A stretch of 64,000 nt of DNA from Candidatus Nanopelagicales bacterium (GCA_030834185.1 JAURFT010000003.1:1848-65847), one strand, 5' to 3'; counted from the first letter of the stretch, positions 26,877-43,663 are shown. The notes: a model not told the origin generated them from the letters alone. Made by a program: numbers and translations.

Positions 26877-27632
26877 TTAACTGCGAAGCAATAAAGCTGC
26901 AGTTCTCGCAAGACTGATTCCGGCTATGGCAGAGAGCCCATCCCCAGTAGCCACCTGATTGGCGGTGAGTGAAATCCAGTTTCGATGCCGGAAAATCTGC
27001 CCGCCAGCTGCTGATCTGGGCGTGTCAACCACAAAGAGCCAAGATCTTGCAGCTATTGAATTCTCATAAATAATCGATGCTGCCAACAGTGCTCTGGTGC
27101 CATCGATGATCACTGGGGTTTTTCTGCTCATCGCCGTTGCGATCTGCACCGCGAGCTCAACTATTGGCTCAACATCAAAAATTTCAATCAACTGCCAAAT
27201 ATCTACAGCATTCACCTGCTGATACAAGTTTTGCAAGGCAGCTATATCTGCCGACCAAAGCGCATCATCACTTGCACTAAAGCCACGAAGCTGAATGAAA
27301 TCTTTACCAGTAATCACGCGTGCAAATAGATACTCCACATTTGATAACTCATCACCAGCTGCAAAAGCAACAAGATCGGATGCGATAGGGGGTTTGTCAA
27401 AGATCTCGATGGAATTTGAATTGGCAGCCGCTGTTGTAAAGGCTGATGGATTAGCAATCACCAAAACTGTCTCTCTAGCTTGTGAATTTGTGGCAGCTAA
27501 CTCAGCTGCGAATCCAGCTAAAGCACCTGGAATGCCATCGAATTTCTTCATGGTGTCGCGTCTAGCAGCAGAATCTGCAAGCGAAATTTCTTCACACAGA
27601 GCGATTAGCTTGGCCAACTGTGGTGAACTCAC
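26877..27632 (-). CDS. CobT-like (nicotinate-nucleotide:DMB phosphoribosyltransferase-like) protein, short and divergent
   Basis: 251 aa versus about 350 for CobT. The C-terminal half resembles CobT (PVIIDGTRALLAAS versus PVLLDGFxSxAAAL; ATGDGLSAIAG versus RLGEGSGAALA). The ADHG and ELGxxNTT blocks are not recognisable. ATGA overlap with the upstream ECF S gene. Confidence 0.5.
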   Translation of the reverse strand: MSSPQLAKLIALCEEISLADSAARRDTMKKFDGIPGALAGFAAELAATNSQARETVLVIANPSAFTTAAANSNSIEIFDKPPIASDLVAFAAGDELSNVEYLFARVITGKDFIQLRGFSASDDALWSADIAALQNLYQQVNAVDIWQLIEIFDVEPIVELAVQIATAMSRKTPVIIDGTRALLAASIIYENSIAARSWLFVVDTPRSAAGGQIFRHRNWISLTANQVATGDGLSAIAGISLARTAALLLRS

Positions 27633-28417
27633 TTTACCTCCGCAACAAACTGAGCAGGTCTTGTAATCCGTCGAAGTGTACGCAGCATAGGCCTTGCGAC
27701 AACAAGCACGATCATAAAAGTAATAACAGCACGAGGAATATCAAAAGATAAACTAGTAACAACTGAAAATGAGACCAGTTTGACTAAATTGGTTCCAATT
27801 GATTCGCCAGGCACAAATGCAATTGCCAAATCACCTACAGCAGCAGTTGGCCAGAACCATAAATTTAATAGCAGCCCCACTGCAACCGCACTAATTGCGC
27901 CATAGGTTGCAAGCAAGGGAATTTCAAATTTGTTCTTTGAAATTGGAATCAGCCCAGCAAACAATCCAACCCAACCTGCAGCGAACATTTGAAACGGCAG
28001 CCAAGGGCCAATACCGCCAGTTATCAGAGCACTGCTTGCCATTCCTAAGCTGCCAGCACTAAATCCAATTACAGGTCCTAATGCGCGACCTGCAATCACA
28101 ATAAATGCCCACATTGGCTCAACTCCAAAAGCATGCGCTCCAATAACTCTTGCAGCTGCAATCAACGCAGAAAGTAATCCAAGTAATGCAATAGATTTAG
28201 AATTTAACGAACCAGCAGAAATTGCCGTTAGCACAACGAGCAATGCGATCGAGATAATAACTGCAGTGAGCACTGGGGCTAGCGATGCCGAGATTCCGGA
28301 GGCATTTGTAACAATTAAGGGCCAGCCAAAAGCAATTACCCCAACTAAAGAACCTAAAAATAGTAACGCAGGAGTTATGGCTAGATTAACTTTAGCCAGC
28401 AAGCTTGATGGCATCAA
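27629..28417 (-). CDS. ECF transporter substrate-specific (S) component
   Basis: 262 aa with about 6-7 TM segments. Lies in an operon with a duplicated EcfA and EcfT, and shows the actinobacterial ECF-S pattern GPWLPFQMFAAGWVG. Confidence 0.7.
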   Translation of the reverse strand: MMPSSLLAKVNLAITPALLFLGSLVGVIAFGWPLIVTNASGISASLAPVLTAVIISIALLVVLTAISAGSLNSKSIALLGLLSALIAAARVIGAHAFGVEPMWAFIVIAGRALGPVIGFSAGSLGMASSALITGGIGPWLPFQMFAAGWVGLFAGLIPISKNKFEIPLLATYGAISAVAVGLLLNLWFWPTAAVGDLAIAFVPGESIGTNLVKLVSFSVVTSLSFDIPRAVITFMIVLVVARPMLRTLRRITRPAQFVAEVK

Positions 28418-29999
28418 CTGCTTCTTCGATAGTTAACAAATTTAAGGGTGAAAAAACTCTAGATACTTGCGGAGAGAACGCAACCGAGTCAATTAGTACC
28501 TCACGCGCAGCGCCTTCAGCAATAACTTCTCCAGCTGAAAGCATTACAACCCGAGCATTTAGCTCTGCTACTAGCTCAACATCATGAGTAGCAATAACCA
28601 CAGAAGTACCTGAACACCCGATGCATCGCAGGGTAGCTAGCAATCTTGATTTGGCATCGTAATCCAAGCCACGAGTAGGTTCATCTAGCAAAAGTAATTT
28701 TGGCGCGCTAGCCATTGTTAAAGCTAACACCAATAAAAGTCGTTGCCCTTCAGATAAGTCATTCGGGGCAACTTCAAAATCTAGCTCTGGTAGAAATTGT
28801 GAGACCATTTTTGCAGTTGTTCCCTTTGGCAATTGCGCAGTTCGATCTGTAAATAAGCACTCCTGTTGCACTGTAGGGTGAAGTAATAAGTCAGCTGGTT
28901 CTTGAGGAACAAATCCAATCTGCCTAATAAAATCAAATCCATGTATTTTGGCCGGATCTTGGCTATTGATTTGAACTTGTCCAGTTAAAGGTTTAACCAG
29001 TCCTGCAAGCACACCCAGCAATGTAGATTTACCAGCACCATTTCTGCCAAGAATTGCTACGGTTTCATTTTTATATACTTCAAAATTCAAATTCTTCAGA
29101 GCCTGCATCGCTCCGTATCTCACACTAACTGCATTAGTGCTAGCAACTAATTCTTCATCTGCTCGATTAATTACTTGAGTAATATCATTCAGTTTTTGAA
29201 TTATTGAGTTTGTGAATTTTCTCGCCTCGCGAACTGAAAGCGGAAGCGGATTCCACCCCAAACGCTTTCCAAGCTGAACTACAGGGGGAGTAATCTCAGA
29301 CATCTGCATCATGGCAGCTGGGTCACCAAAACTAATTGGCATCGCATTTCCTGGCACATAGATAACAGAATCTGCAAATTGCAAAATTCGCTCTAGGCGA
29401 TGCTCTGCAGCAATAACAGTTATTCCAAGATCATGAACTAACCGCTGCAGCGCAGCTAGTACTTCTTCAGCGGCAGCTGGATCAAGTGCGCTGGTTGGTT
29501 CATCTAGTATCAAAACTTTTGGCCGGTTCACTAAAACCGAAGCAATTGCAACACGCTGCTGCTGCCCAGCCGATAGCGATTCAGTGGCCTGCTGCAATAT
29601 TTCAGTGAGACCCATCAGTTCAGCAGCCTCATCGATTCGCTGCCGCATTATTTTGGGATCTACCCCTAAGCATTCCATCGCGTATGCCATTTCATCTTCA
29701 ACCATGCTTGTGACAAAAGAATTGCGAGGATTTTGCGAAACCACACCAACTATTTCTGCAAGGTCACGAGGCTTGAATTGCTTTGTGTTGAATCCAAAAA
29801 TGTCCACATCCCCAGCCAGTAGGCCACCAGTTAAATGAGGAGAGACGCCATTGATTAAATTCAATAAAGTGGACTTACCCGATCCGGTTTTTCCAACAAC
29901 TAAATGAAATTCACCAGCAGCAAGCTGTGCCGAAAAATCCCTAATAACAACTGCGGCTTGGTCATGATAGGCAAAACTTACGGAATTGAAATTAATCAT
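28392..29999 (-). CDS. ECF transporter fused double ATPase (EcfA-EcfA')
   Basis: Two ABC cassettes: GKTGSGKST/LSAGQQQRV/LILDEP and GRNGAGKST/LSEGQRLLL/LLLDEP. Start refined to ATG 29999, which forms an ATGA overlap with the EcfT stop. Confidence 0.9.
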   Translation of the reverse strand: MINFNSVSFAYHDQAAVVIRDFSAQLAAGEFHLVVGKTGSGKSTLLNLINGVSPHLTGGLLAGDVDIFGFNTKQFKPRDLAEIVGVVSQNPRNSFVTSMVEDEMAYAMECLGVDPKIMRQRIDEAAELMGLTEILQQATESLSAGQQQRVAIASVLVNRPKVLILDEPTSALDPAAAEEVLAALQRLVHDLGITVIAAEHRLERILQFADSVIYVPGNAMPISFGDPAAMMQMSEITPPVVQLGKRLGWNPLPLSVREARKFTNSIIQKLNDITQVINRADEELVASTNAVSVRYGAMQALKNLNFEVYKNETVAILGRNGAGKSTLLGVLAGLVKPLTGQVQINSQDPAKIHGFDFIRQIGFVPQEPADLLLHPTVQQECLFTDRTAQLPKGTTAKMVSQFLPELDFEVAPNDLSEGQRLLLVLALTMASAPKLLLLDEPTRGLDYDAKSRLLATLRCIGCSGTSVVIATHDVELVAELNARVVMLSAGEVIAEGAAREVLIDSVAFSPQVSRVFSPLNLLTIEEAVDAIKLAG

Positions 30000-31048
30000 T
30001 TTGTTAACCCACCTGGTGGCTTTGGACAAATAATGATTGGGGAGAGCAGTAGCCCAAATATTACAAGTGATTTAACCAGTTCGTTAGTATTTAAAAGTAC
30101 AGAAACCATTACAAGCAGTATTGCAACAACAAGTAAAGAAAATTCAGTTTGACTAAATTCCAAGTTGCGATAAACAGTTCGCAATTTTAATTTACCACTT
30201 AGTGCAACAGAGATAACTATTAAGAAAATTGCTAACACCAAGATAGTCAAGTTAGTAATGCTCAATGGATTGCGCAGCAGTGAGGTGGTAGCTAAAATCA
30301 TTAGCATCATGCCAGCAATCAAAATTATTGAAACTGTCATGTTGTTGAATTTTGTTGTTTTAATTCTGCCAAATCCCTTCGATTCCATCGCATTCGCTAA
30401 CGTAACAGCGCGGTTGAGAGAGTTTTCGATTAGCGGGAAAAGTAAAGCGAGCTGGTGCCGTATTTTTCTTGCAGGTCTGCCACGTAGCGCTGCAGCTGTT
30501 TTTAATCGCTTGGCATCTGCGCTTAATGCGGGCAAAAACCCAAGCGCAATTACAGTTACTAATCCTGCTTCATAGACGGCATTTGGCAGTGATTTCAGCA
30601 ATAGACTGGGTGGAACGAGCGCAGCAGCCGCCGAAGCAGCAATGATAACTGTCGCCAGCTTGAAGCCATGAGCGATAGCTGCGACCAATCCAGTGCTTCC
30701 CACTTTTCCACCAAGTGAGATGCCGCCAAGCCAGTTTGGTAAATCTAAAACGGGTAAAGTCATTAACACAGGTCCGCCAAAATGAACCCCGAATATTAAT
30801 TCAATAACGATTCTAAACAGCACAATGAATATTGCCAACCTAATAAGCAGGCCAATTGCGTTAGACCATGATCGGGTCGATCTAAATGTAATAAGCACAG
30901 TCAAGATTGCAGTAAAAACTAAAACGTGTGTAATAAAGCTATTACTTAATATTGCCACAACGGCAGCTGATAATCCCCAACCCCACCAAGCCAACGGATG
31001 AACCCATCTGGATTCGCGTTGACTTGGGAAGAGTTGAGTTAACTGCAT
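29996..31048 (-). CDS. ECF transporter transmembrane (T) component, CbiQ family
   Basis: Polytopic protein with a conserved Arg-rich coupling-helix region (ALRGRPARKIR...ANAMESKGFG). Start refined to ATG 31048, 1 nt after the upstream stop. Confidence 0.8.
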   Translation of the reverse strand: MQLTQLFPSQRESRWVHPLAWWGWGLSAAVVAILSNSFITHVLVFTAILTVLITFRSTRSWSNAIGLLIRLAIFIVLFRIVIELIFGVHFGGPVLMTLPVLDLPNWLGGISLGGKVGSTGLVAAIAHGFKLATVIIAASAAAALVPPSLLLKSLPNAVYEAGLVTVIALGFLPALSADAKRLKTAAALRGRPARKIRHQLALLFPLIENSLNRAVTLANAMESKGFGRIKTTKFNNMTVSIILIAGMMLMILATTSLLRNPLSITNLTILVLAIFLIVISVALSGKLKLRTVYRNLEFSQTEFSLLVVAILLVMVSVLLNTNELVKSLVIFGLLLSPIIICPKPPGGLTK

Positions 31049-31049
31049 A

Positions 31050-31694
31050 TTATTTTTTGGTTCTACCGATGAAAAGCACAACTCCAACAACAACTAACAT
31101 GATTCCGGCGTAGATAAAAATATTTCCACCAGTGTCCATTTCGTCCGCTGCTTGCTCTACTGCTTCTACTGGTGTTTCATATGGTGTTGCTTCAACTTCA
31201 GCTATGTCGGGTACTTCAGTTCCACATTCAGTAAGCGGATAGCCATCTATGCCACAAACGAAACCACCATCTGCCCGCACATCAGCTGAGATTGCTAACG
31301 CATCAGCACTTGATCCACCAGCAGGCATGCTTACGCATTCAACTCGGTTTGGACGTGGAGTTTCAGCTGCAGGTGCTTGATCTGCATCACCAAAATCAAT
31401 AACAACAGCCACGCGCGTAATGCCTTCAGTAGCTGCTAAGTCAGGGCAAAGTTCAGCAAAATTTGGCACAGTTCGAGGCTCTGGTGTGTCGGTATCAGTA
31501 CCGATACCAAAACGCCATCCATCTACTGAGCCATCGGCTGGGATATTTTCAGCAGCTCCAACCATCGCCATTGTCCATGCGCCATCAGCTCCGGTAAAAA
31601 AACCCCAGTAACGGTATGACGCTGCACTAGCTGGTAAAGCTGATGCTGCGAGGAAAGAAATTGCGATAAGTACACGTAAAATATTTTTAAACAC
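31050..31694 (-). CDS. Exported, C-terminally membrane-anchored protein (SCO2322-like), first gene of the riboswitch-controlled operon
   Basis: Start refined to GTG 31694 (GGAG 5 nt upstream). This gives the signal peptide MFKNILRVLIAISFLAASALPASA. A C-terminal TM helix is followed by RTKK. The YRYWGFF...DGWRFG pattern is present. Confidence 0.6.
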   Translation of the reverse strand: MFKNILRVLIAISFLAASALPASAASYRYWGFFTGADGAWTMAMVGAAENIPADGSVDGWRFGIGTDTDTPEPRTVPNFAELCPDLAATEGITRVAVVIDFGDADQAPAAETPRPNRVECVSMPAGGSSADALAISADVRADGGFVCGIDGYPLTECGTEVPDIAEVEATPYETPVEAVEQAADEMDTGGNIFIYAGIMLVVVGVVLFIGRTKK

Positions 31695-31746
31695 TGATGC
31701 TCCGTTTCTTGACGGTCGCAAGCAGTAACGGGTTCAAACTGGAGAT

Positions 31747-31777
31747 AAAAAAGCCCTCACACTAAAAATGCGAGGGC
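31747..31777 (-). terminator. Intrinsic terminator of the riboswitch expression platform
   Basis: The minus strand reads GCCCTCGCA-tttttag-TGTGAGGGC followed by TTTTTT: a 9-bp stem with one G-U pair and a U6 tract, 53 nt upstream of the first CDS. Confidence 0.8.
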
Positions 31778-31940
31778 AAAGACCAGGTATTGGACTCCGC
31801 CCGCTGTCCACGACGGGTGTTGGTTGTCGCACACTTGCTAGGCACTCCGACTTATCGCTTGACTACTTGCGTAGGCGACCTACGGTTGCGGGACAGTGCC
31901 GGAATTCGACCGGCTTCCCCTAGACACTCAAGTGCATATT
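31747..31940 (-). promoter_or_regulatory. Cobalamin (B12) riboswitch
   Basis: The minus strand contains the conserved core TAGGGGAAGCCGGTCGAATTCCGGCACTGTCCCGCAACCGTAGG and a B12-box-like AAGTCGGAGTGCCTAGC. Closing-helix arms are GCACTTG...CTAGG / CCTAGCAAGTG, followed by a terminator. Confidence 0.85.
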
Positions 31941-31994
31941 CAGTTATGACTTAACCCTAGCTGCTCTAGCCATAAGATTTCTACTCCAGTTCGC

Positions 31995-33344
31995 GTGTTG
32001 CCGCTGCAGTATGTAAGGGGAGAGGCTTTGAGCGATCAGCCAAAAGAGAAATTGGGATCAAAGTATCGCCGACTTTTTAGCTCAGCTTTGGTATCAAATT
32101 TAGGTGATGGCATAACGATGGTCGCTTATCCATGGTTGGCATCCGCAGTTACCCGCTCACCAATACTTATCGCCCTGATAGCGGTGGCATCAAGATTGCC
32201 ATGGTTACTTTTTTCATTGCCCGCAGGAGTTATAACTGATCGCTTTGACCGCAAAAAGTTAATCATCAGCATGGATTTGCTTCGAGGGGTATTTACCTTG
32301 GGCATTGGAATTATGGTTCTGCTACAACAAACGAACCTACCTGGGTTGAACGAGTTAGCAAATACCCAGATCTCAACCAATTACTTTTTGTACTTTGTTT
32401 TATTGCTAGCAACTTTTGCAACTGGTTGCGCAGAAGTGCTGCGAGATAACTCAGCTCAAACAGTGCTGCCTGCAATAGTTGAAAAATCACAACTAGAAAA
32501 AGCAAATGGTCGACTGTGGTCGGCTGAATCTGTCATGAACACCTTTATTGGTCGACCGCTGGGTAGTTTTATTATTGGCTTTGCCATATTTCTTCCTTTC
32601 TTCATTAACGCTGGAACTTTTTTTATTGCGGCAGCATTGCTGGCTACAATTTCTGGAAGTTTTGCGGCGGCAAAGGTTTCAACAACTGAACAAAATTCGG
32701 CAAATTGGCGAAGCCAGCTTAAAGAGGGTTTAAGCTGGCTATGGCGGCATCCGTTGCTTCGACCATTGGCAATCATCCTTGGGCTTATAAACGGATTAAG
32801 TGCGATGTCAGCAGCAGCTTTTATTTTGTTTGCTCAAGAAATTTTAAACACCTCAGTTTTTGAATTCGCGCTACTGAGCACAGGTGCGGCTGCGGGTGGA
32901 ATCTTGGGTGGAGTTTTTGCGCATCGCATTTCAAAGCGCCTTGGGTCAGGCAGATCTTTGGGCCTAACTATGTTTATTGGTGGTGCGTTAATGATTGCTA
33001 CCGGCTTGGTCTCAAGTTGGTATTTAGTTTGGATTTTTAGTTTTGTTACTACATTTTTAATCATGCTTTGGAACGTAATAACGGTTTCGCTTCGGCAGCA
33101 AATAATTCCAGATCATTTATTAGGTCGAGTAAACAGCGCATACCGATTTTTTGGCTGGGGAATGATGCCAATTGGTTCGATAGTAGGTGGATTTGTTGTT
33201 GCTGCTGTTGAGTTAATCGGACCACGAGAGTGGGCGCTGCGCTCACCATTTTTAGTTGGTGGTGCGCTCAGCCTGGTGTTATTTGCGTTTGCGCGCCAAA
33301 TACTTACAACTGAACGGATCGAAGCAGCTAGAGCAGGCGGTTAA
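31995..33344 (+). CDS. MFS transporter (EntS/DUF894-like)
   Basis: 12 predicted TM segments and the MFS loop motif ITDRFDRKK. A likely better start is TTG 32028, behind a strong SD (AAGGGGAGAGG). Confidence 0.8.
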   Translation: MLPLQYVRGEALSDQPKEKLGSKYRRLFSSALVSNLGDGITMVAYPWLASAVTRSPILIALIAVASRLPWLLFSLPAGVITDRFDRKKLIISMDLLRGVFTLGIGIMVLLQQTNLPGLNELANTQISTNYFLYFVLLLATFATGCAEVLRDNSAQTVLPAIVEKSQLEKANGRLWSAESVMNTFIGRPLGSFIIGFAIFLPFFINAGTFFIAAALLATISGSFAAAKVSTTEQNSANWRSQLKEGLSWLWRHPLLRPLAIILGLINGLSAMSAAAFILFAQEILNTSVFEFALLSTGAAAGGILGGVFAHRISKRLGSGRSLGLTMFIGGALMIATGLVSSWYLVWIFSFVTTFLIMLWNVITVSLRQQIIPDHLLGRVNSAYRFFGWGMMPIGSIVGGFVVAAVELIGPREWALRSPFLVGGALSLVLFAFARQILTTERIEAARAGG

Positions 33345-39964: not shown

Positions 39965-40365
39965 TGAAATCTGGTGGCATGCTTTATATGGCAGGAGCAC
40001 TTTTTTACTTCGCAGTTTCTGCAATTTATTTTGTTTGGACCGGTGAAGTTGTTGGCACAACTGGACTGTTGCTAACTGGCTTTCTAGCGCTGCTAACCGG
40101 CTTTTATGTGCTCTTTACAGTTCGTCGATTAGGTGAAGGTCCAGAAGATCTTGAAGATGCTGAGATCGCAGATGCTGATCCAGACTATGGTTTTTATTCA
40201 CCAAGCTCCTGGTGGCCGCTACCGGTGGCATTTAGCGCAGCGGTGATCTCAGTTGGGCTGATTTTTGCAGTCTGGCTAGTGCTGCTTGGTGTAATTACTT
40301 TGTTTATTAGCTTGGGCGGTTGGATGCTTGAGTACTACCGAGGCCCTAGGTTGCCTGAAGCTTAA
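39964..40365 (+). CDS. ctaF: Cytochrome c oxidase subunit IV (actinobacterial CtaF)
   Basis: 133 aa with 4 TM helices. Directly follows ctaD with a TGATG overlap. Confidence 0.8.
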   Translation: MKSGGMLYMAGALFYFAVSAIYFVWTGEVVGTTGLLLTGFLALLTGFYVLFTVRRLGEGPEDLEDAEIADADPDYGFYSPSSWWPLPVAFSAAVISVGLIFAVWLVLLGVITLFISLGGWMLEYYRGPRLPEA

Positions 40366-40993
40366 TAGTTGTAACCGCATTAGCAGAGATTTGTTGTGCC
40401 AGCCTGGCATTTAAGCTGGCAGCAGCTGCAGCGCCGATAAATAATGGCAAAGCTGCGCCAGCTTTTGCCGGCAGCAATTTACTTCCCACCTTAATAATTA
40501 CTCGCTGGGATAGTTTGTTGTTCAAATTCGCAAGAAAGTTATCCGCTACATCAGTTGTTTTGCTCAACTCATTTGGTTCGCCAAGAAATGAACTAAGCAC
40601 AGTAAGGCGTCTGAGTTCAATATCGTCTAACTGCAGGTCATGTAAGGCGGCAATTAATAAAATGTGATTAACGCTCACTTTGCCAAAAAAATATAGATCA
40701 GCGGCAGTGCTTCCTATAGTGCTTAAAAAACCAAAAAAGGGTGCAGCAGCTATCGCACCAGATGCTGCACCAGCTGCGCTAACTTGAATCAGGTAATTAT
40801 TTGTGGCGTTCTTAATAAGTTGGTCTTGGGTGAAGTTTGGATTTTCGCTGCGCAAGCGTGCTGCAGCTGCCCAGGACTTTGCATATTGATCAGCTATAGC
40901 AGCATCTCCACCTCGAAGGAAAACACTGCCTAGCTGTTTGACTGCATCAGATTTTGAGTTCACCTCAGAAGGGTAGATCATCACCTGTATCAA
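40346..40993 (-). CDS. Hypothetical protein, possibly EcsC-like; third gene of the nuclease operon
   Basis: 215 aa with two Gly/Ala-rich hydrophobic stretches (AAGAASGAIAAAPFFGFLSTIGSTAADLYFFG; AGAALPLFIGAAAAAS). The block IAALHDLQLDDIELRR recalls EcsC-family proteins. The start (TTG 40993 or ATG 40981) overlaps the end of the upstream gene. The 3' end overlaps ctaF by 20 nt. Confidence 0.4.
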   Translation of the reverse strand: MIQVMIYPSEVNSKSDAVKQLGSVFLRGGDAAIADQYAKSWAAAARLRSENPNFTQDQLIKNATNNYLIQVSAAGAASGAIAAAPFFGFLSTIGSTAADLYFFGKVSVNHILLIAALHDLQLDDIELRRLTVLSSFLGEPNELSKTTDVADNFLANLNNKLSQRVIIKVGSKLLPAKAGAALPLFIGAAAAASLNARLAQQISANAVTTIKLQAT

Positions 40994-42722
40994 CCGCTTC
41001 CACCAAGGCTAGGGCTCGGACTAACGCATCTATGGCAACAGGCTGCGTAGTTATGACCTCACCGGTAACCAGATCTACCTCAAGGCCGTCAGCTAGTTTC
41101 TCTGTAGTAGTTTGCGGATTAGTTACCCGCTGATCGCACCAAGCGCTAACCGGGCAGCTCAAGCAAGCTGTTCCCGGATTGGGTGCAAAGCTCTCATCAT
41201 GATGTAGCTGATCGAAATTTATGGCAATTGAACGGCGAGCAGCAAGCACGATGCTTGCATCTGCAACATCAAATGAAATTAGCTTTCCTGATTCAGGGGT
41301 TAATAGCTCCAATTCGACAAATCCGCCGACCTCTTCTTGTATGCAAATTGCAAATGCAACCTGCGGATACAACAATAAATATTCATTAGCCGTTAGTTCT
41401 TGAATAACGGCTGTAGTTTTTAATTCACGCCAAATTGGCACACCAGCTCGAGTGCCAAGCTCATCAGCTCGAGTTGTGATTACCACATCAGCATCGCTAT
41501 CCCAAACCGTCTTAGATTGCTCGCTTTCTAGTTTGGTATAACTGTGTTGATATGGGCAGAGCGCAAAATGACTAGTTATCCAGTTGCGAGCTTGATCTAG
41601 ATAGGTTATTGGCCAACCCAGACTTTCTGCTATTTCACCCAGCTGTCCAGCTGGCAGGTCAGCGGCGGTGCAGGCTTGTTCGCGTTGGTGCGCTTTCATG
41701 ATCCATTCATGAACCGCGTTACCTCGATCGATGGCCGCATTTGATTCGAAAGCTTTTTTAGGAAGTTTCAAGACATATGTTAAGAAATACTGATAGTTAC
41801 ACCTTTGATACGAACTTAGCATCGAGCGCGAGAGGGATTTAGAGATTTTACCTGCGGTTGGAAGTCCTAGGAATCCTGGAATTTTTACAATTGCAGGGCA
41901 ACTAATTCGAAACCGACACTCAACGCAGTTATTGCCTGGCTGAAATTCAGGAGCCAACAAAAAATCTTGAACAATGGTTGAAACTCCGCCAACAAATGCC
42001 GCCGCAGATGACGCATCCCCATCAAAAAGCGTGGCAGCTGAACTATCCAAGCAACCAATTTGGCGCACTCTAACTCTGAGCGGGGGATTAGTTGGCAGCG
42101 TCTGGTGTGGGTCGGTCCAGCGGGCAATCGGCCCATCGGTGATGGCCCCATTTAATAAAATATTTACAGCCGCTATCAATTGGTTTCTATCTCGAGTAGT
42201 TTGGGCATCTCGATAGCAGAATAATCTAAGTTCTCTAATGGTTTTATCTACGCTTTGATAAAAAACACCCCAGTTGGTGAGCTCTAATCGCTGATTATCA
42301 GTAGTTGCGACACAAACAAAATCTGCAGTTGGCTGCATCACTTGGTCAACAGCTAAATCTTCAGCAGCAAAATCTTCAGTGGCATTTAGGGCATTTTGCA
42401 CCATTGTTTTTGCAGCTAATAAACTCGGTTCAGTCGCATCAGTACCAAGCTCTGCCGCAATTACTTCAGCTAGATTCGTCGGTGTTCGCTGTGCTGCTAA
42501 CACAGTGCGCGCTGCACCTAATAAAAATACTGCTCGGGGATCTTTGCGCTGGGACCAATCGCGGGCCTCGGTGTAAAGTCCAACATAGGCTTTAGCAACT
42601 TTTTCGACAGCGCAGCTTCCAGTTACATTTTTAAGGGCAGATGAACTAACTCGGATTAATGATGCCGATCCATTAGTTTTCCATGGTGGTTGCCACAGTT
42701 GTAGATCAGCTAGATTAATCAT
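40965..42722 (-). CDS. Tandem two-module PD-(D/E)XK (Cas4/AddB-type, 4-Cys) nuclease-like protein with an SSB-tail-like C-terminus
   Basis: Module 2: C308, GNAVH338, D420, E433-L-K435, C520-x2-C523-x5-C529. Module 1: C37 and C266-x2-C269-x5-C275, but D134...E147-L-T149 (no Lys). Ends ...DTGDDLPF. Confidence 0.6.
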   Translation of the reverse strand: MINLADLQLWQPPWKTNGSASLIRVSSSALKNVTGSCAVEKVAKAYVGLYTEARDWSQRKDPRAVFLLGAARTVLAAQRTPTNLAEVIAAELGTDATEPSLLAAKTMVQNALNATEDFAAEDLAVDQVMQPTADFVCVATTDNQRLELTNWGVFYQSVDKTIRELRLFCYRDAQTTRDRNQLIAAVNILLNGAITDGPIARWTDPHQTLPTNPPLRVRVRQIGCLDSSAATLFDGDASSAAAFVGGVSTIVQDFLLAPEFQPGNNCVECRFRISCPAIVKIPGFLGLPTAGKISKSLSRSMLSSYQRCNYQYFLTYVLKLPKKAFESNAAIDRGNAVHEWIMKAHQREQACTAADLPAGQLGEIAESLGWPITYLDQARNWITSHFALCPYQHSYTKLESEQSKTVWDSDADVVITTRADELGTRAGVPIWRELKTTAVIQELTANEYLLLYPQVAFAICIQEEVGGFVELELLTPESGKLISFDVADASIVLAARRSIAINFDQLHHDESFAPNPGTACLSCPVSAWCDQRVTNPQTTTEKLADGLEVDLVTGEVITTQPVAIDALVRALALVEAVDTGDDLPF

Positions 42723-43663
42723 TATTCACTCAATTCAAGCGGGAGTAAATCTAGCGGGTTTGGTTCAGCTGCTACGGCGGAAATTTTGCGCTGCAAACCA
42801 GTTTGGCTTAACAGCTGCTGCGATGCGGCTGAACCAGGTGGTGGTGAAGTTTTTTGGTGGGCGGGGCATACTGGTTTAAACGGGCAGTAACTGCACAGCC
42901 GAGATGGTTGCGCTAGCCATTTGGCGGTTTTAAATGACTCATCAATCTGAGAGCGAGTTTCCACAAGCACCTCAGTTACCCGCTCTATTGCCGCTGGATA
43001 CACAGGTCTGCGGACAGCTTGTTTATCCGGAAGAAAAAGCAGCTCAACTTCTTCAACGCCTGGATCTGAACCATCATTTATCGCTGCTGCATAAAACATT
43101 ACCTGCTGCACATAATCATCCAGCGGAGCTCCCGTGGGCTTTTTCCCAGTCTTGTAGTCGGTAACTCGGTCAACTGGTTTTCTAGTTCTACGATCTAACC
43201 TGCCATGAAATAAAACGCCAGCAAGCTGGGCATCTACATCAGATTCGATATCTTTTAAATCAACCTCAATCTCAGTTGGTTTCTCAAGCTCAAAATATCC
43301 CGTGAGTGCTAAATCAGCTCGTTTGCGAACATCGTCACGATTTGCACCACGGCCTAGATGTTCATACTCAGGCTTCAGTAACAAATCTTTACCAATGGTG
43401 CCCATGATCGCCCAAGCGTTCTCAAAGCTTCGATCAGGCTGTGGTAATCGATACAAGCCTTCTAAAGTGTCATGCACAATTGTTCCAGCCGCTAAAGCTG
43501 GGGTTGGTGGTTCGCGCCAACCCAGTAAATATGAAAACCAATATCGCAGCGCACATTTCCGAAAGGCTGAAATCTGGGTTGGCGATAATCTGATACTGGG
43601 ATTGCCAGCATCAGTTAAATCAACATCTACTTCAATAGATTGAAATCCGTTCCTTGCGCTCAT
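42722..43663 (-). CDS. Cas4/AddB-type PD-(D/E)XK nuclease with a 4-Cys (Fe-S) signature
   Basis: C37, G60-x3-H64, GRLD157, D169-Y-K171, Q187-x3-Y191 and C257-x2-C260-x5-C266. TAATG overlap with the downstream gene. Confidence 0.75.
   Translation of the reverse strand: MSARNGFQSIEVDVDLTDAGNPSIRLSPTQISAFRKCALRYWFSYLLGWREPPTPALAAGTIVHDTLEGLYRLPQPDRSFENAWAIMGTIGKDLLLKPEYEHLGRGANRDDVRKRADLALTGYFELEKPTEIEVDLKDIESDVDAQLAGVLFHGRLDRRTRKPVDRVTDYKTGKKPTGAPLDDYVQQVMFYAAAINDGSDPGVEEVELLFLPDKQAVRRPVYPAAIERVTEVLVETRSQIDESFKTAKWLAQPSRLCSYCPFKPVCPAHQKTSPPPGSAASQQLLSQTGLQRKISAVAAEPNPLDLLPLELSE

Follow-up and report, generated by a model that had tools for sequence, protein, structure and literature searches.

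A cobalamin-clan riboswitch preceding a five-gene ECF transporter operon in a Candidatus Nanopelagicales bacterium: a probable B12-repressed corrinoid importer

We analyzed a stretch of 64,000 nucleotides from a Candidatus Nanopelagicales bacterium (GCA_030834185.1, JAURFT010000003.1:1848-65847), hereafter called the window, and characterized a five-gene operon on its minus strand together with the RNA leader that precedes it. All features of the leader and of the operon are on that strand, and coordinates are those of the window. The operon probably codes for an energy-coupling factor (ECF) transporter for corrinoid uptake that is repressed by B12 through a kissing loop and an antiterminator. 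The data show the aptamer, the helices with their covariation, the families of the genes, their synteny, and purifying selection; what is bound and what is transported, the OFF logic, termination as the mechanism, and what the accessory proteins do are inferred.

In the proposed mechanism, binding of cobalamin to the aptamer in the leader would cause its loop L5 (UCC) to pair with loop L13 (GGA) of the regulatory hairpin P13. The resulting kissing loop would lock the 3′ strand of P13, CGGG, and thereby block formation of the helix GGGCGGAG/CUUUGCCC. Without this antiterminator, a GC-rich hairpin followed by six U residues would form, and transcription would end ahead of the first gene. In the absence of B12, the antiterminator would form instead, allowing expression of the five translationally coupled genes. 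The importer itself would consist of a long EcfT protein, a fused EcfAA′ ATPase, and a family-specific S component, i.e., a dedicated, group-I-like system, and its cargo would be complete corrinoids (cobalamin and possibly cobinamide), supplied to a host unable to make B12.

Import of corrinoids is favored over that of cobalt or of a lower ligand because of the riboswitch control, the linkage of the module to genes for nucleotide-loop assembly, and its retention in the acI lineage. According to the pertinent passage of Kang et al. (2017, Sci Rep 7:42252, PMC5301498), acI genomes lack B12 synthesis, and their ECF module preceded by a riboswitch was proposed to be a cobalamin transporter. Our main claim has thus already been published, and the present analysis is confirmatory rather than surprising. 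The preliminary description of this DNA, which held that the operon would define the B12-acquisition route of its host, agrees with that proposal for acI genomes but was anticipated by it. Moreover, ECF-type import of B12 has been established experimentally elsewhere, as ECF-CbrT imports both cobalamin and cobinamide and provides a precedent for ECF systems (PMC5997447). Comparative genomics counts ECF “CbrUVT/CbrT” systems among the B12 transporters.

The aptamer and its expression platform

The whole window was scanned against Rfam 15 with cmscan, using the gathering scores as cut-offs. The sole match above gathering was to RF01689, AdoCbl-II, a member of clan CL00101 (45.1 bits versus 36.5, E = 1.3e-7), and it placed a cobalamin-clan riboswitch aptamer at positions 31934 to 31832. 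The aptamer core quoted in the preliminary description, GGGAAGCCGGTCGAATTCCGGCACTGTCCCGCAACCGTAGG, was indeed found there, at approximately 31919 to 31879. L5, with the bases UCC, is located at 31893 to 31891, and a two-stem P6 accessory arm spans 31879 to 31854. With this short two-stem arm, the aptamer is better described by RF01689 than by RF00174. Its 31-nt accessory arm stands in place of the 5-nt loop of the RF01689 model.

A leader alignment was built from 13 relatives. Their proteins share no more than 60 to 90% identity, and their synonymous sites have reached saturation (pS, the synonymous divergence, of 0.65 to 0.82). Despite this saturation, the leader of approximately 250 nt is about 90% identical among them. 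A consensus structure composed of the Rfam core helices, the P6 arm, the downstream hairpin, and the terminator was paired in 99.7% of the cells (47 pairs in 13 sequences), whereas slid controls reached only 34 to 40%. The GCCGG/CCGGC hairpin and the two accessory stems contain compensatory double changes, at three pairs in all, and the core helices of the CL00101 aptamer are backed by covariation. Directly 5′ of the aptamer, a CATAACT block (31942 to 31948) is identical in 12 of the 12 relatives whose aligned rows extend so far, and the sequence farther upstream is variable. A scan with the sigma-70 consensus yielded no promoter at this block, which may be a −10 or a transcription-start element.

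The aptamer is followed by the P13/L13 hairpin, CCCG-UCGUGGACAG-CGGG (31817 to 31800), which is invariant in the 13 relatives. Its bases GGA at 31809 to 31807 are the proposed kissing partner of the UCC of L5. In distant orthologous loci, a homologous hairpin with a GUCGWGGA loop was found just 3′ of the aptamer. Across 54 loci, which are phylogenetically non-independent, the N of CUG-N-CCC in L5 covaries with the base that follows GG in L13, U:A accounting for 26 of 31 and A:U for 15 of 23 cases. We therefore propose that L5 and L13 form the kissing loop that would link the aptamer to the expression platform, a coupling device that is established for cobalamin riboswitches (PMC9600662). Only four loci turned up when metagenome contigs were scanned for exact copies of the P13 segment that is invariant in the relatives. 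Another candidate kissing loop, between the loop of GCCGG-UCGAAUU-CCGGC and a CGACC sequence close to the Shine-Dalgarno (SD) sequence, was dropped, since covariation is seen between the UCC of L5, in CUGUCCCGCA, and the GGA of L13.

In the minimum-free-energy structure of the nascent transcript calculated with RNAfold, GGGCGGAG (31802 to 31795) pairs with CUUUGCCC (31781 to 31774) to form a candidate antiterminator (31802 to 31774). GGGCGGAG is made up of the 3′ strand of P13 and the purines that follow it, and CUUUGCCC shares bases with the 5′ arm of the terminator, so that the antiterminator is mutually exclusive with both P13 and the terminator. Constrained folds gave −28.1 kcal/mol for the antiterminator state and −30.4 kcal/mol for the terminator state, a difference of 2.3 kcal/mol. 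The 9-bp terminator with six U residues announced in the preliminary description was recovered by a pattern scan at 31777 to 31747, with a stem GCCCUCGCA/UGUGAGGGC at 31777 to 31753 and the T-run at 31752 to 31747, and its hairpin has a folding energy of −16.6 kcal/mol. The stem is kept in all 13 relatives; seven of its nine pairs are invariant, and the other two change on one side with the pair preserved. This GC-rich hairpin and its U-run have the hallmarks of an intrinsic terminator, and termination at this site is thus predicted. In L025, a locus from a second acI lineage, this three-part architecture recurs in a different sequence, with an independent terminator at the same place.

Between the terminator and the first gene, a segment at 31746 to 31695 is nearly invariant in the alignment of the 13 relatives. 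It contains the SD sequence GGAG (31703 to 31700), and folds of this segment revealed a CCGUU/AACGG pairing able to occlude it.

The five genes and their products

The identity of the five genes given in the preliminary description was borne out by matches of the minus-strand open reading frames (ORFs) to Pfam and NCBIfam models. The first gene (31694 to 31050) codes for a 214-residue protein of the SCO2322 family; its likeliest start is the GTG at 31694, 6 nt past GGAG, rather than an upstream TTG. It is followed by genes for a 350-residue T component of the EcfT/CbiQ type (31048 to 29996; PF02361, 39.7 bits versus 25) and for a 535-residue fused EcfA-EcfA′ ATPase with two ABC_tran domains (29999 to 28392). 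The fourth gene, which codes for the S component, starts at 28414 (ATG) or 28417 (TTG) and ends at 27629, giving a protein of 261 or 262 residues (PF12822, 33.8 bits versus 30.7). The last gene (27632 to 26877) codes for a soluble protein of 251 residues derived from CobT. The genes are tightly packed, largely as first described. The first junction, TAAtATG, leaves 1 nt between genes 1 and 2, and genes 2 and 3 share an ATGA overlap. The overlap between genes 3 and 4 is indeed 26 nt if translation begins at the TTG but 23 nt if it begins at the ATG, and the last junction is a GTGA rather than a second ATGA overlap.

From their sequences, the T component, the two ECF-type ATPase domains, and the S component make up a dedicated, group-I-like ECF transporter. 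The best NCBIfam models for the ATPase, those of ECF ATPases 1 and 2 (TIGR04520, 309.9 bits, and TIGR04521, 301.2 bits), fell slightly short of the equivalog thresholds, which are 315 and 330, respectively. EcfT has a C-terminal extension of approximately 100 residues past the CbiQ domain (29996 to 30330), in which the hydropathy profile predicts about four transmembrane segments. Its relatives have 350 to 386 residues, which is unusually long for EcfT proteins, and the extension might contact the membrane anchor of the SCO2322 protein. For the S component, about 2000 homologues were found. In a set of 26 family members, 15 matched PF12822 and seven PF07155, with no other Pfam family represented; in particular, none matched CbiM (PF01891). 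Furthermore, the S component of the window begins with MPSSLL and lacks the N-terminal MHIxxG motif, and no CbiN gene was found at the operon. The preliminary description was thus right that this protein is not CbiM and that the operon is not a CbiMNQO system.

The product of gene 5 is related to CobT only distantly in sequence. Its match to the DBI_PRT profile (28.4 bits) covers profile positions 175 to 318 only, i.e., the C-terminal half, and the NCBIfam CobT models gave 26.3 and 16.1 bits versus cut-offs of 306 and 319. A search of PDB sequences with a gene 5 profile did not find CobT. However, an AlphaFold2 (AF2) model of the protein (predicted local distance difference test score [pLDDT] of 79) retrieved CobT or ArsAB structures as all of its top 27 Foldseek matches (E = 5e-7, template modeling [TM] scores of 0.64 to 0.72, approximately 14% identity), which indicates a CobT fold. 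In a comparison of its hidden Markov model (HMM) with the full-length CobT proteins of two actinobacterial loci (L066 and L073), residues 6 to 53 matched CobT residues 7 to 56, and residues 87 to 247 matched CobT residues 179 to 342. The kinship to CobT was revealed only by the fold search and by this two-piece match to actinobacterial CobT proteins.

Relative to CobT, approximately 100 residues are missing, and the alignment showed that three elements are lost (the region of AGDHG, the loop GxMGIGNTT, and the motif HRSxEP), while PVxxDG and the C-terminal helix persist. In all 15 members of the gene 5 family, GEG is replaced by GDG. PDB titles of CobT structures name E174A and E317A mutants, and the GxMGIGNTT loop and the catalytic Glu of GEG are represented by E174 and E317. 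The loss of motifs and the change from GEG to GDG make it very unlikely that the protein is an active nicotinate mononucleotide:5,6-dimethylbenzimidazole (NaMN:DMB) phosphoribosyltransferase; to judge from these residues, it is probably inactive as such an enzyme. Nevertheless, gene 5 appears to code for a functional protein and not to be a pseudogene, because it is under purifying selection (a ratio of nonsynonymous to synonymous divergence, pN/pS, of 0.26 to 0.31, equal to those of EcfA and the S component), many of its polar residues are invariant in the family, and shortened CobT-like proteins occur in parallel elsewhere. The gene 5 family is narrow: 16 clusters were found in a word-indexed search, and matches at E < 1e-10 were limited to two cluster representatives among 1.84 billion.

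In L066 and L073, the ECF module is followed by CobT, CobS, and PepA. This order indicates that gene 5 of the window occupies the ancestral position of cobT beside pepA, with cobS gone. Mycobacterium tuberculosis has the same synteny, with cobT-cobS...pepB-dlaT-lipB-lipA-glnA. Independent shortened CobT-like proteins of about 200 to 250 residues were noted at the same position after the S gene in three loci of two other lineages, the first two loci forming one of them (L024, 7845 to 8495; L025, 10045 to 10695; L085, 14168 to 15091). The library of 1.84 billion proteins also contains many CobT-like proteins of 240 to 300 residues with GDG and without GIGNTT.

The SCO2322-family protein encoded by gene 1 matched NF040672 with 147.7 bits (cut-off 85), and PF28005 was matched in relatives. 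Between a signal peptide and a C-terminal transmembrane anchor with a basic tail, the family alignment shows YRYW and four Cys residues, all of them invariant. The AF2 model has a pLDDT of 86, and of approximately 95 for the ectodomain. No match to the ectodomain fold was found in the PDB, the best Foldseek result having an E value of 2.1 and a TM score of 0.15. The idea that this domain is a B12 binder of the transcobalamin-beta/DUF4430-like type was given up, as the confident AF2 model had no fold match in the PDB. The literature searched contained no mention of SCO2322. A homologue from Streptacidiphilus carbonis, P0184, is called “cobalamin biosynthesis Mg chelatase CobN” by JGI. A fold search with P0184 matched neither ChlH nor CobN, and the label is probably an annotation artefact.

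A tentative extension of these observations gives both accessory proteins a role in transport. The SCO2322 ectodomain might serve as an extracytoplasmic subunit that captures corrinoids, and the CobT derivative as a cytoplasmic receiver or chaperone for the nucleotide loop; with the S component, they would constitute the main B12 uptake system of Actinomycetota, including Streptomyces. ECF transporters are known to work without a binding protein. If this conjecture were true, the SCO2322 capture subunit would be an exception to that rule, and a subunit for handling the ligand would have arisen from a CobT enzyme while the salvage pathway was being lost.

Distribution of the module and competing explanations

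A scan with an SCO2322 profile over one genome per GTDB species identified 316 confirmed stretches, from which 80 loci were retrieved, all of Actinomycetota or of metagenome-assembled genomes (MAGs) plausibly belonging to that phylum. As determined by tblastn, the order SCO2322-EcfT-EcfAA′-S is kept in 80 of the 80 loci, as far as the contigs reach. Rfam searches placed a cobalamin-clan riboswitch (RF00174, RF01482, or RF01689) directly upstream in 11 of 15 sampled loci, and a strict regular expression for the aptamer core found it upstream in at least 56 of the 80, a lower bound given that several loci end short upstream. Naive clustering of ORFs was too noisy in high-GC loci, and downstream cob genes were thus sought by tblastn with reference CobU, CobT, and CobS proteins. 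Among the 62 loci with at least 3 kb beyond the S gene, 33 have cobU, cobT, or cobS within 4.5 kb after it, three of these having a truncated cobT-like gene only. In 27 loci, pepA is close by.

Several observations weigh against a B12-repressed corrinoid importer controlled by termination. RF00174, the cobalamin model to which the leader had initially been expected to belong, did not reach its own gathering score in the window (31.5 bits); at E ≤ 10, two weaker same-clan matches overlap that of RF01689, and RF00174 was seen only among such matches. The identification of a riboswitch at the level of the clan is solid despite this miss. As to the exact effector, aptamers of the RF01689 type reportedly prefer methyl- or aquo-cobalamin over adenosylcobalamin (AdoCbl) (Johnson et al., 2012). 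P13 and L13 are invariant within the close clade and hence show no covariation there, nor does the terminator, and the U-run of the terminator is interrupted or weaker in three of the 13 relatives (L016, L093, and L099). The invariant segment able to occlude the SD sequence suggests an additional or alternative translational control. The S component showed no sequence similarity to the solved S components (CbrT, BtuM, RibU, and others): the comparison with CbrT and BtuM suggested in the preliminary description came out empty, both with the single sequence and with a 26-sequence profile against PDB chains (E ≤ 10), a library assumed to include ECF-CbrT and compared by sequence only. The substrate is consequently assigned from context. 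Finally, a screen of the 64-kb window detected no B12-dependent enzyme, and this region thus offers no proof of a need for B12.

Some of these points could also be explained if control were mainly translational or Rho dependent, with the hairpin and its U-run incidental or forming a secondary layer. The 52 nt that separate the U-run from the start codon hardly vary and are able to pair with the SD sequence, the U-run is broken in the three relatives mentioned above, and U-rich terminators are mostly absent from high-GC relatives. Nevertheless, we consider this alternative unlikely. The stem is preserved in all 13 relatives with changes that maintain pairing, P13 and the terminator each compete with an antiterminator, and the second acI lineage has a terminator of its own, of different sequence, at the same place.

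With respect to the substrate, the preliminary description regarded uptake of corrinoids or of their lower ligand as the likeliest role. The first part of this proposal is supported by the genomic context and by the riboswitch. The second, namely that the operon imports DMB, alpha-ribazole, or a related base or riboside, as CblT/CblS do, and that the CobT-like protein activates or handles the base, appears very unlikely. In its favor, translation of the CobT homologue is coupled to that of the S component, the module is found beside cobT and cobS in many relatives, and CblT is a lower-ligand importer regulated by a cobalamin riboswitch (PMC8123684). However, the gene 5 product is devoid of the AGDHG, GxMGIGNTT, and HRSxEP motifs, with CobT scores of 16 to 26 bits where more than 300 would be expected. 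A whole-window screen detected no other cob genes in the 64 kb, including cobS, cobU, and a gene for a CblS-like kinase, such that an imported base could not be attached. Even cobinamide salvage is kept in only a few Planktophila strains, most Nanopelagicales being without it (PMC12817590).

We regard as highly improbable a B12-repressed importer of cobalt or another metal, in which the SCO2322 protein would be an extracytoplasmic accessory similar to CbiN or NikK. In its favor, cobalt transporters are commonly under the control of cobalamin riboswitches, the T component and the ATPase match the “cobalt transport” CbiQ family and models of the cbiO type, respectively, and SCO2322 has its four invariant Cys residues. 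Metal ECF systems are also said to have extra extracytoplasmic or membrane subunits (Rodionov, 2006). Yet the S component is neither CbiM nor NikM, as seen from the lack of PF01891 and of an N-terminal MHIxxG; the genes linked to the module are cobU, cobT, and cobS rather than those of chelatases; and the invariant residues of SCO2322 are aromatic or Cys rather than the His, Asp, or Glu of a metal site. In acI bacteria, which are without corrin synthesis according to the genome-based statement in PMC5301498, B12-regulated import of cobalt would be purposeless. Lastly, a transporter not of B12 but of some metabolite required solely under B12 shortage, regulated like metE or nrdAB, would fit the repression of B12-independent isozymes by cobalamin riboswitches and the fact that the S family matches only generic families with no substrate assigned, but it is hardly credible, as the module persistently adjoins nucleotide-loop assembly genes across Actinomycetota, a CobT-derived gene is retained in the operon, and the neighbors point to no other substrate.

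Related systems and genomic surroundings

The closest precedent for the proposed corrinoid importer is the acI prediction of Kang et al. (PMC5301498), which concerns the same type of lineage, low-GC freshwater Nanopelagicales, and draws the same inference. In its pertinent passage, that prediction is a single genome-based sentence and does not extend to an SCO2322 protein, a truncated CobT-like gene, the expression platform, or the spread in Actinomycetota. ECF-CbrT of Lactobacillus delbrueckii (PMC5997447) is likewise a corrinoid importer of the ECF type of ABC transporters, whose function was predicted from its B12 context before it was proven. In contrast with ECF-CbrT, which uses a shared group-II module, the operon described here has dedicated components, with a fused EcfAA′, an extended EcfT, and two extra conserved genes. 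The CbiMNQO and NikMNQO systems have in common with it a CbiQ-like T component, CbiO-like ATPases, control by cobalamin riboswitches in some genomes, and extra small subunits. However, neither CbiM/NikM nor CbiN is present in our operon, and its host lineage lacks corrin synthesis, as stated for acI in PMC5301498. The CblT/CblS system for alpha-ribazole salvage similarly combines an importer of the S-component type, regulated by a riboswitch, with lower-ligand genes, but our operon has neither the CblS kinase nor CobS. The predicted fold of the gene 5 product matches those of Salmonella enterica CobT (1D0S/1L4E) and of ArsAB, from which its length and motifs differ. At the RNA level, cobalamin riboswitches with a short P6 and an L5-L13 interaction (Bacillus subtilis btuF and the env8/AdoCbl-variant class, RF01689) share with our leader the four-way-junction core, the two-stem arm, P13 coupled through a kissing loop, and the intrinsic terminator. 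Our leader has a further invariant segment near the SD sequence.

Several features of the module appear to be undescribed in the literature searched: the family-specific S component, its obligatory SCO2322 partner, the extended EcfT, the CobT relic, and the breadth of the module. Bacteria of the acI/Nanopelagicales group, which are auxotrophic for B12, outnumber all other freshwater bacterioplankton. If it imports corrinoids, the operon would be their only visible gate for B12, with a bearing on vitamin traffic in lakes and on cultivation. The occurrence of the module in hundreds of species of Actinomycetota, its control by riboswitches, and its linkage to cobU, cobT, and cobS make it a candidate B12/cobinamide importer of non-mycobacterial actinobacteria.

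Other genes accompany the module in part of the loci. A metallo-beta-lactamase domain fused to CobU (Lactamase_B_2 + CobU) is encoded directly after the S gene in one locus (L010, 6232 to 7713) and in about 30 others; we know of no description of this fusion. In Streptomycetales and some MAGs, the SCO2322 gene is preceded by a gene for a secreted alpha/alpha-toroid protein, similar to squalene-hopene cyclases or prenyltransferases, and the riboswitch is upstream of the toroid gene (L007, 6562 to 8004; L008, 6742 to 8004; L010, 654 to 1730). No such gene is present in the window.

The window has a GC content of approximately 45%, the closest relatives with a name are MAGs of Candidatus Nanopelagicales (acI), and an identical cluster is found on a metagenome contig of 219 kb. 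It represents an actinobacterial core region, with glnE, pst-phoU, glnA, lipA, lipB, sucB, lpdA, pepA, cta, qcr, trpD, and glp genes. On the 3′ side of the operon, the CobT-like gene and the housekeeping genes pepA-lpdA-sucB are only 37 nt apart (26876 to 26840), and this spacer is devoid of terminator-like sites. On the other side, a divergent MFS_3 gene for an EntS-like “transmembrane secretion effector” (32118 to 33344, plus strand) is a neighbor conserved throughout the clade (L001 and L096 to L102) and shares a 423-nt intergenic region with the riboswitch operon. Elsewhere in the window, two minus-strand ORFs had no Pfam match at E ≤ 1e-5 (1388 to 2494, 368 residues; 40346 to 40993, 215 residues). 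Between the cta and qcr clusters, two adjacent proteins of the PD-(D/E)XK nuclease superfamily, of 585 and 313 residues, are encoded on the minus strand at 40965 to 43663.

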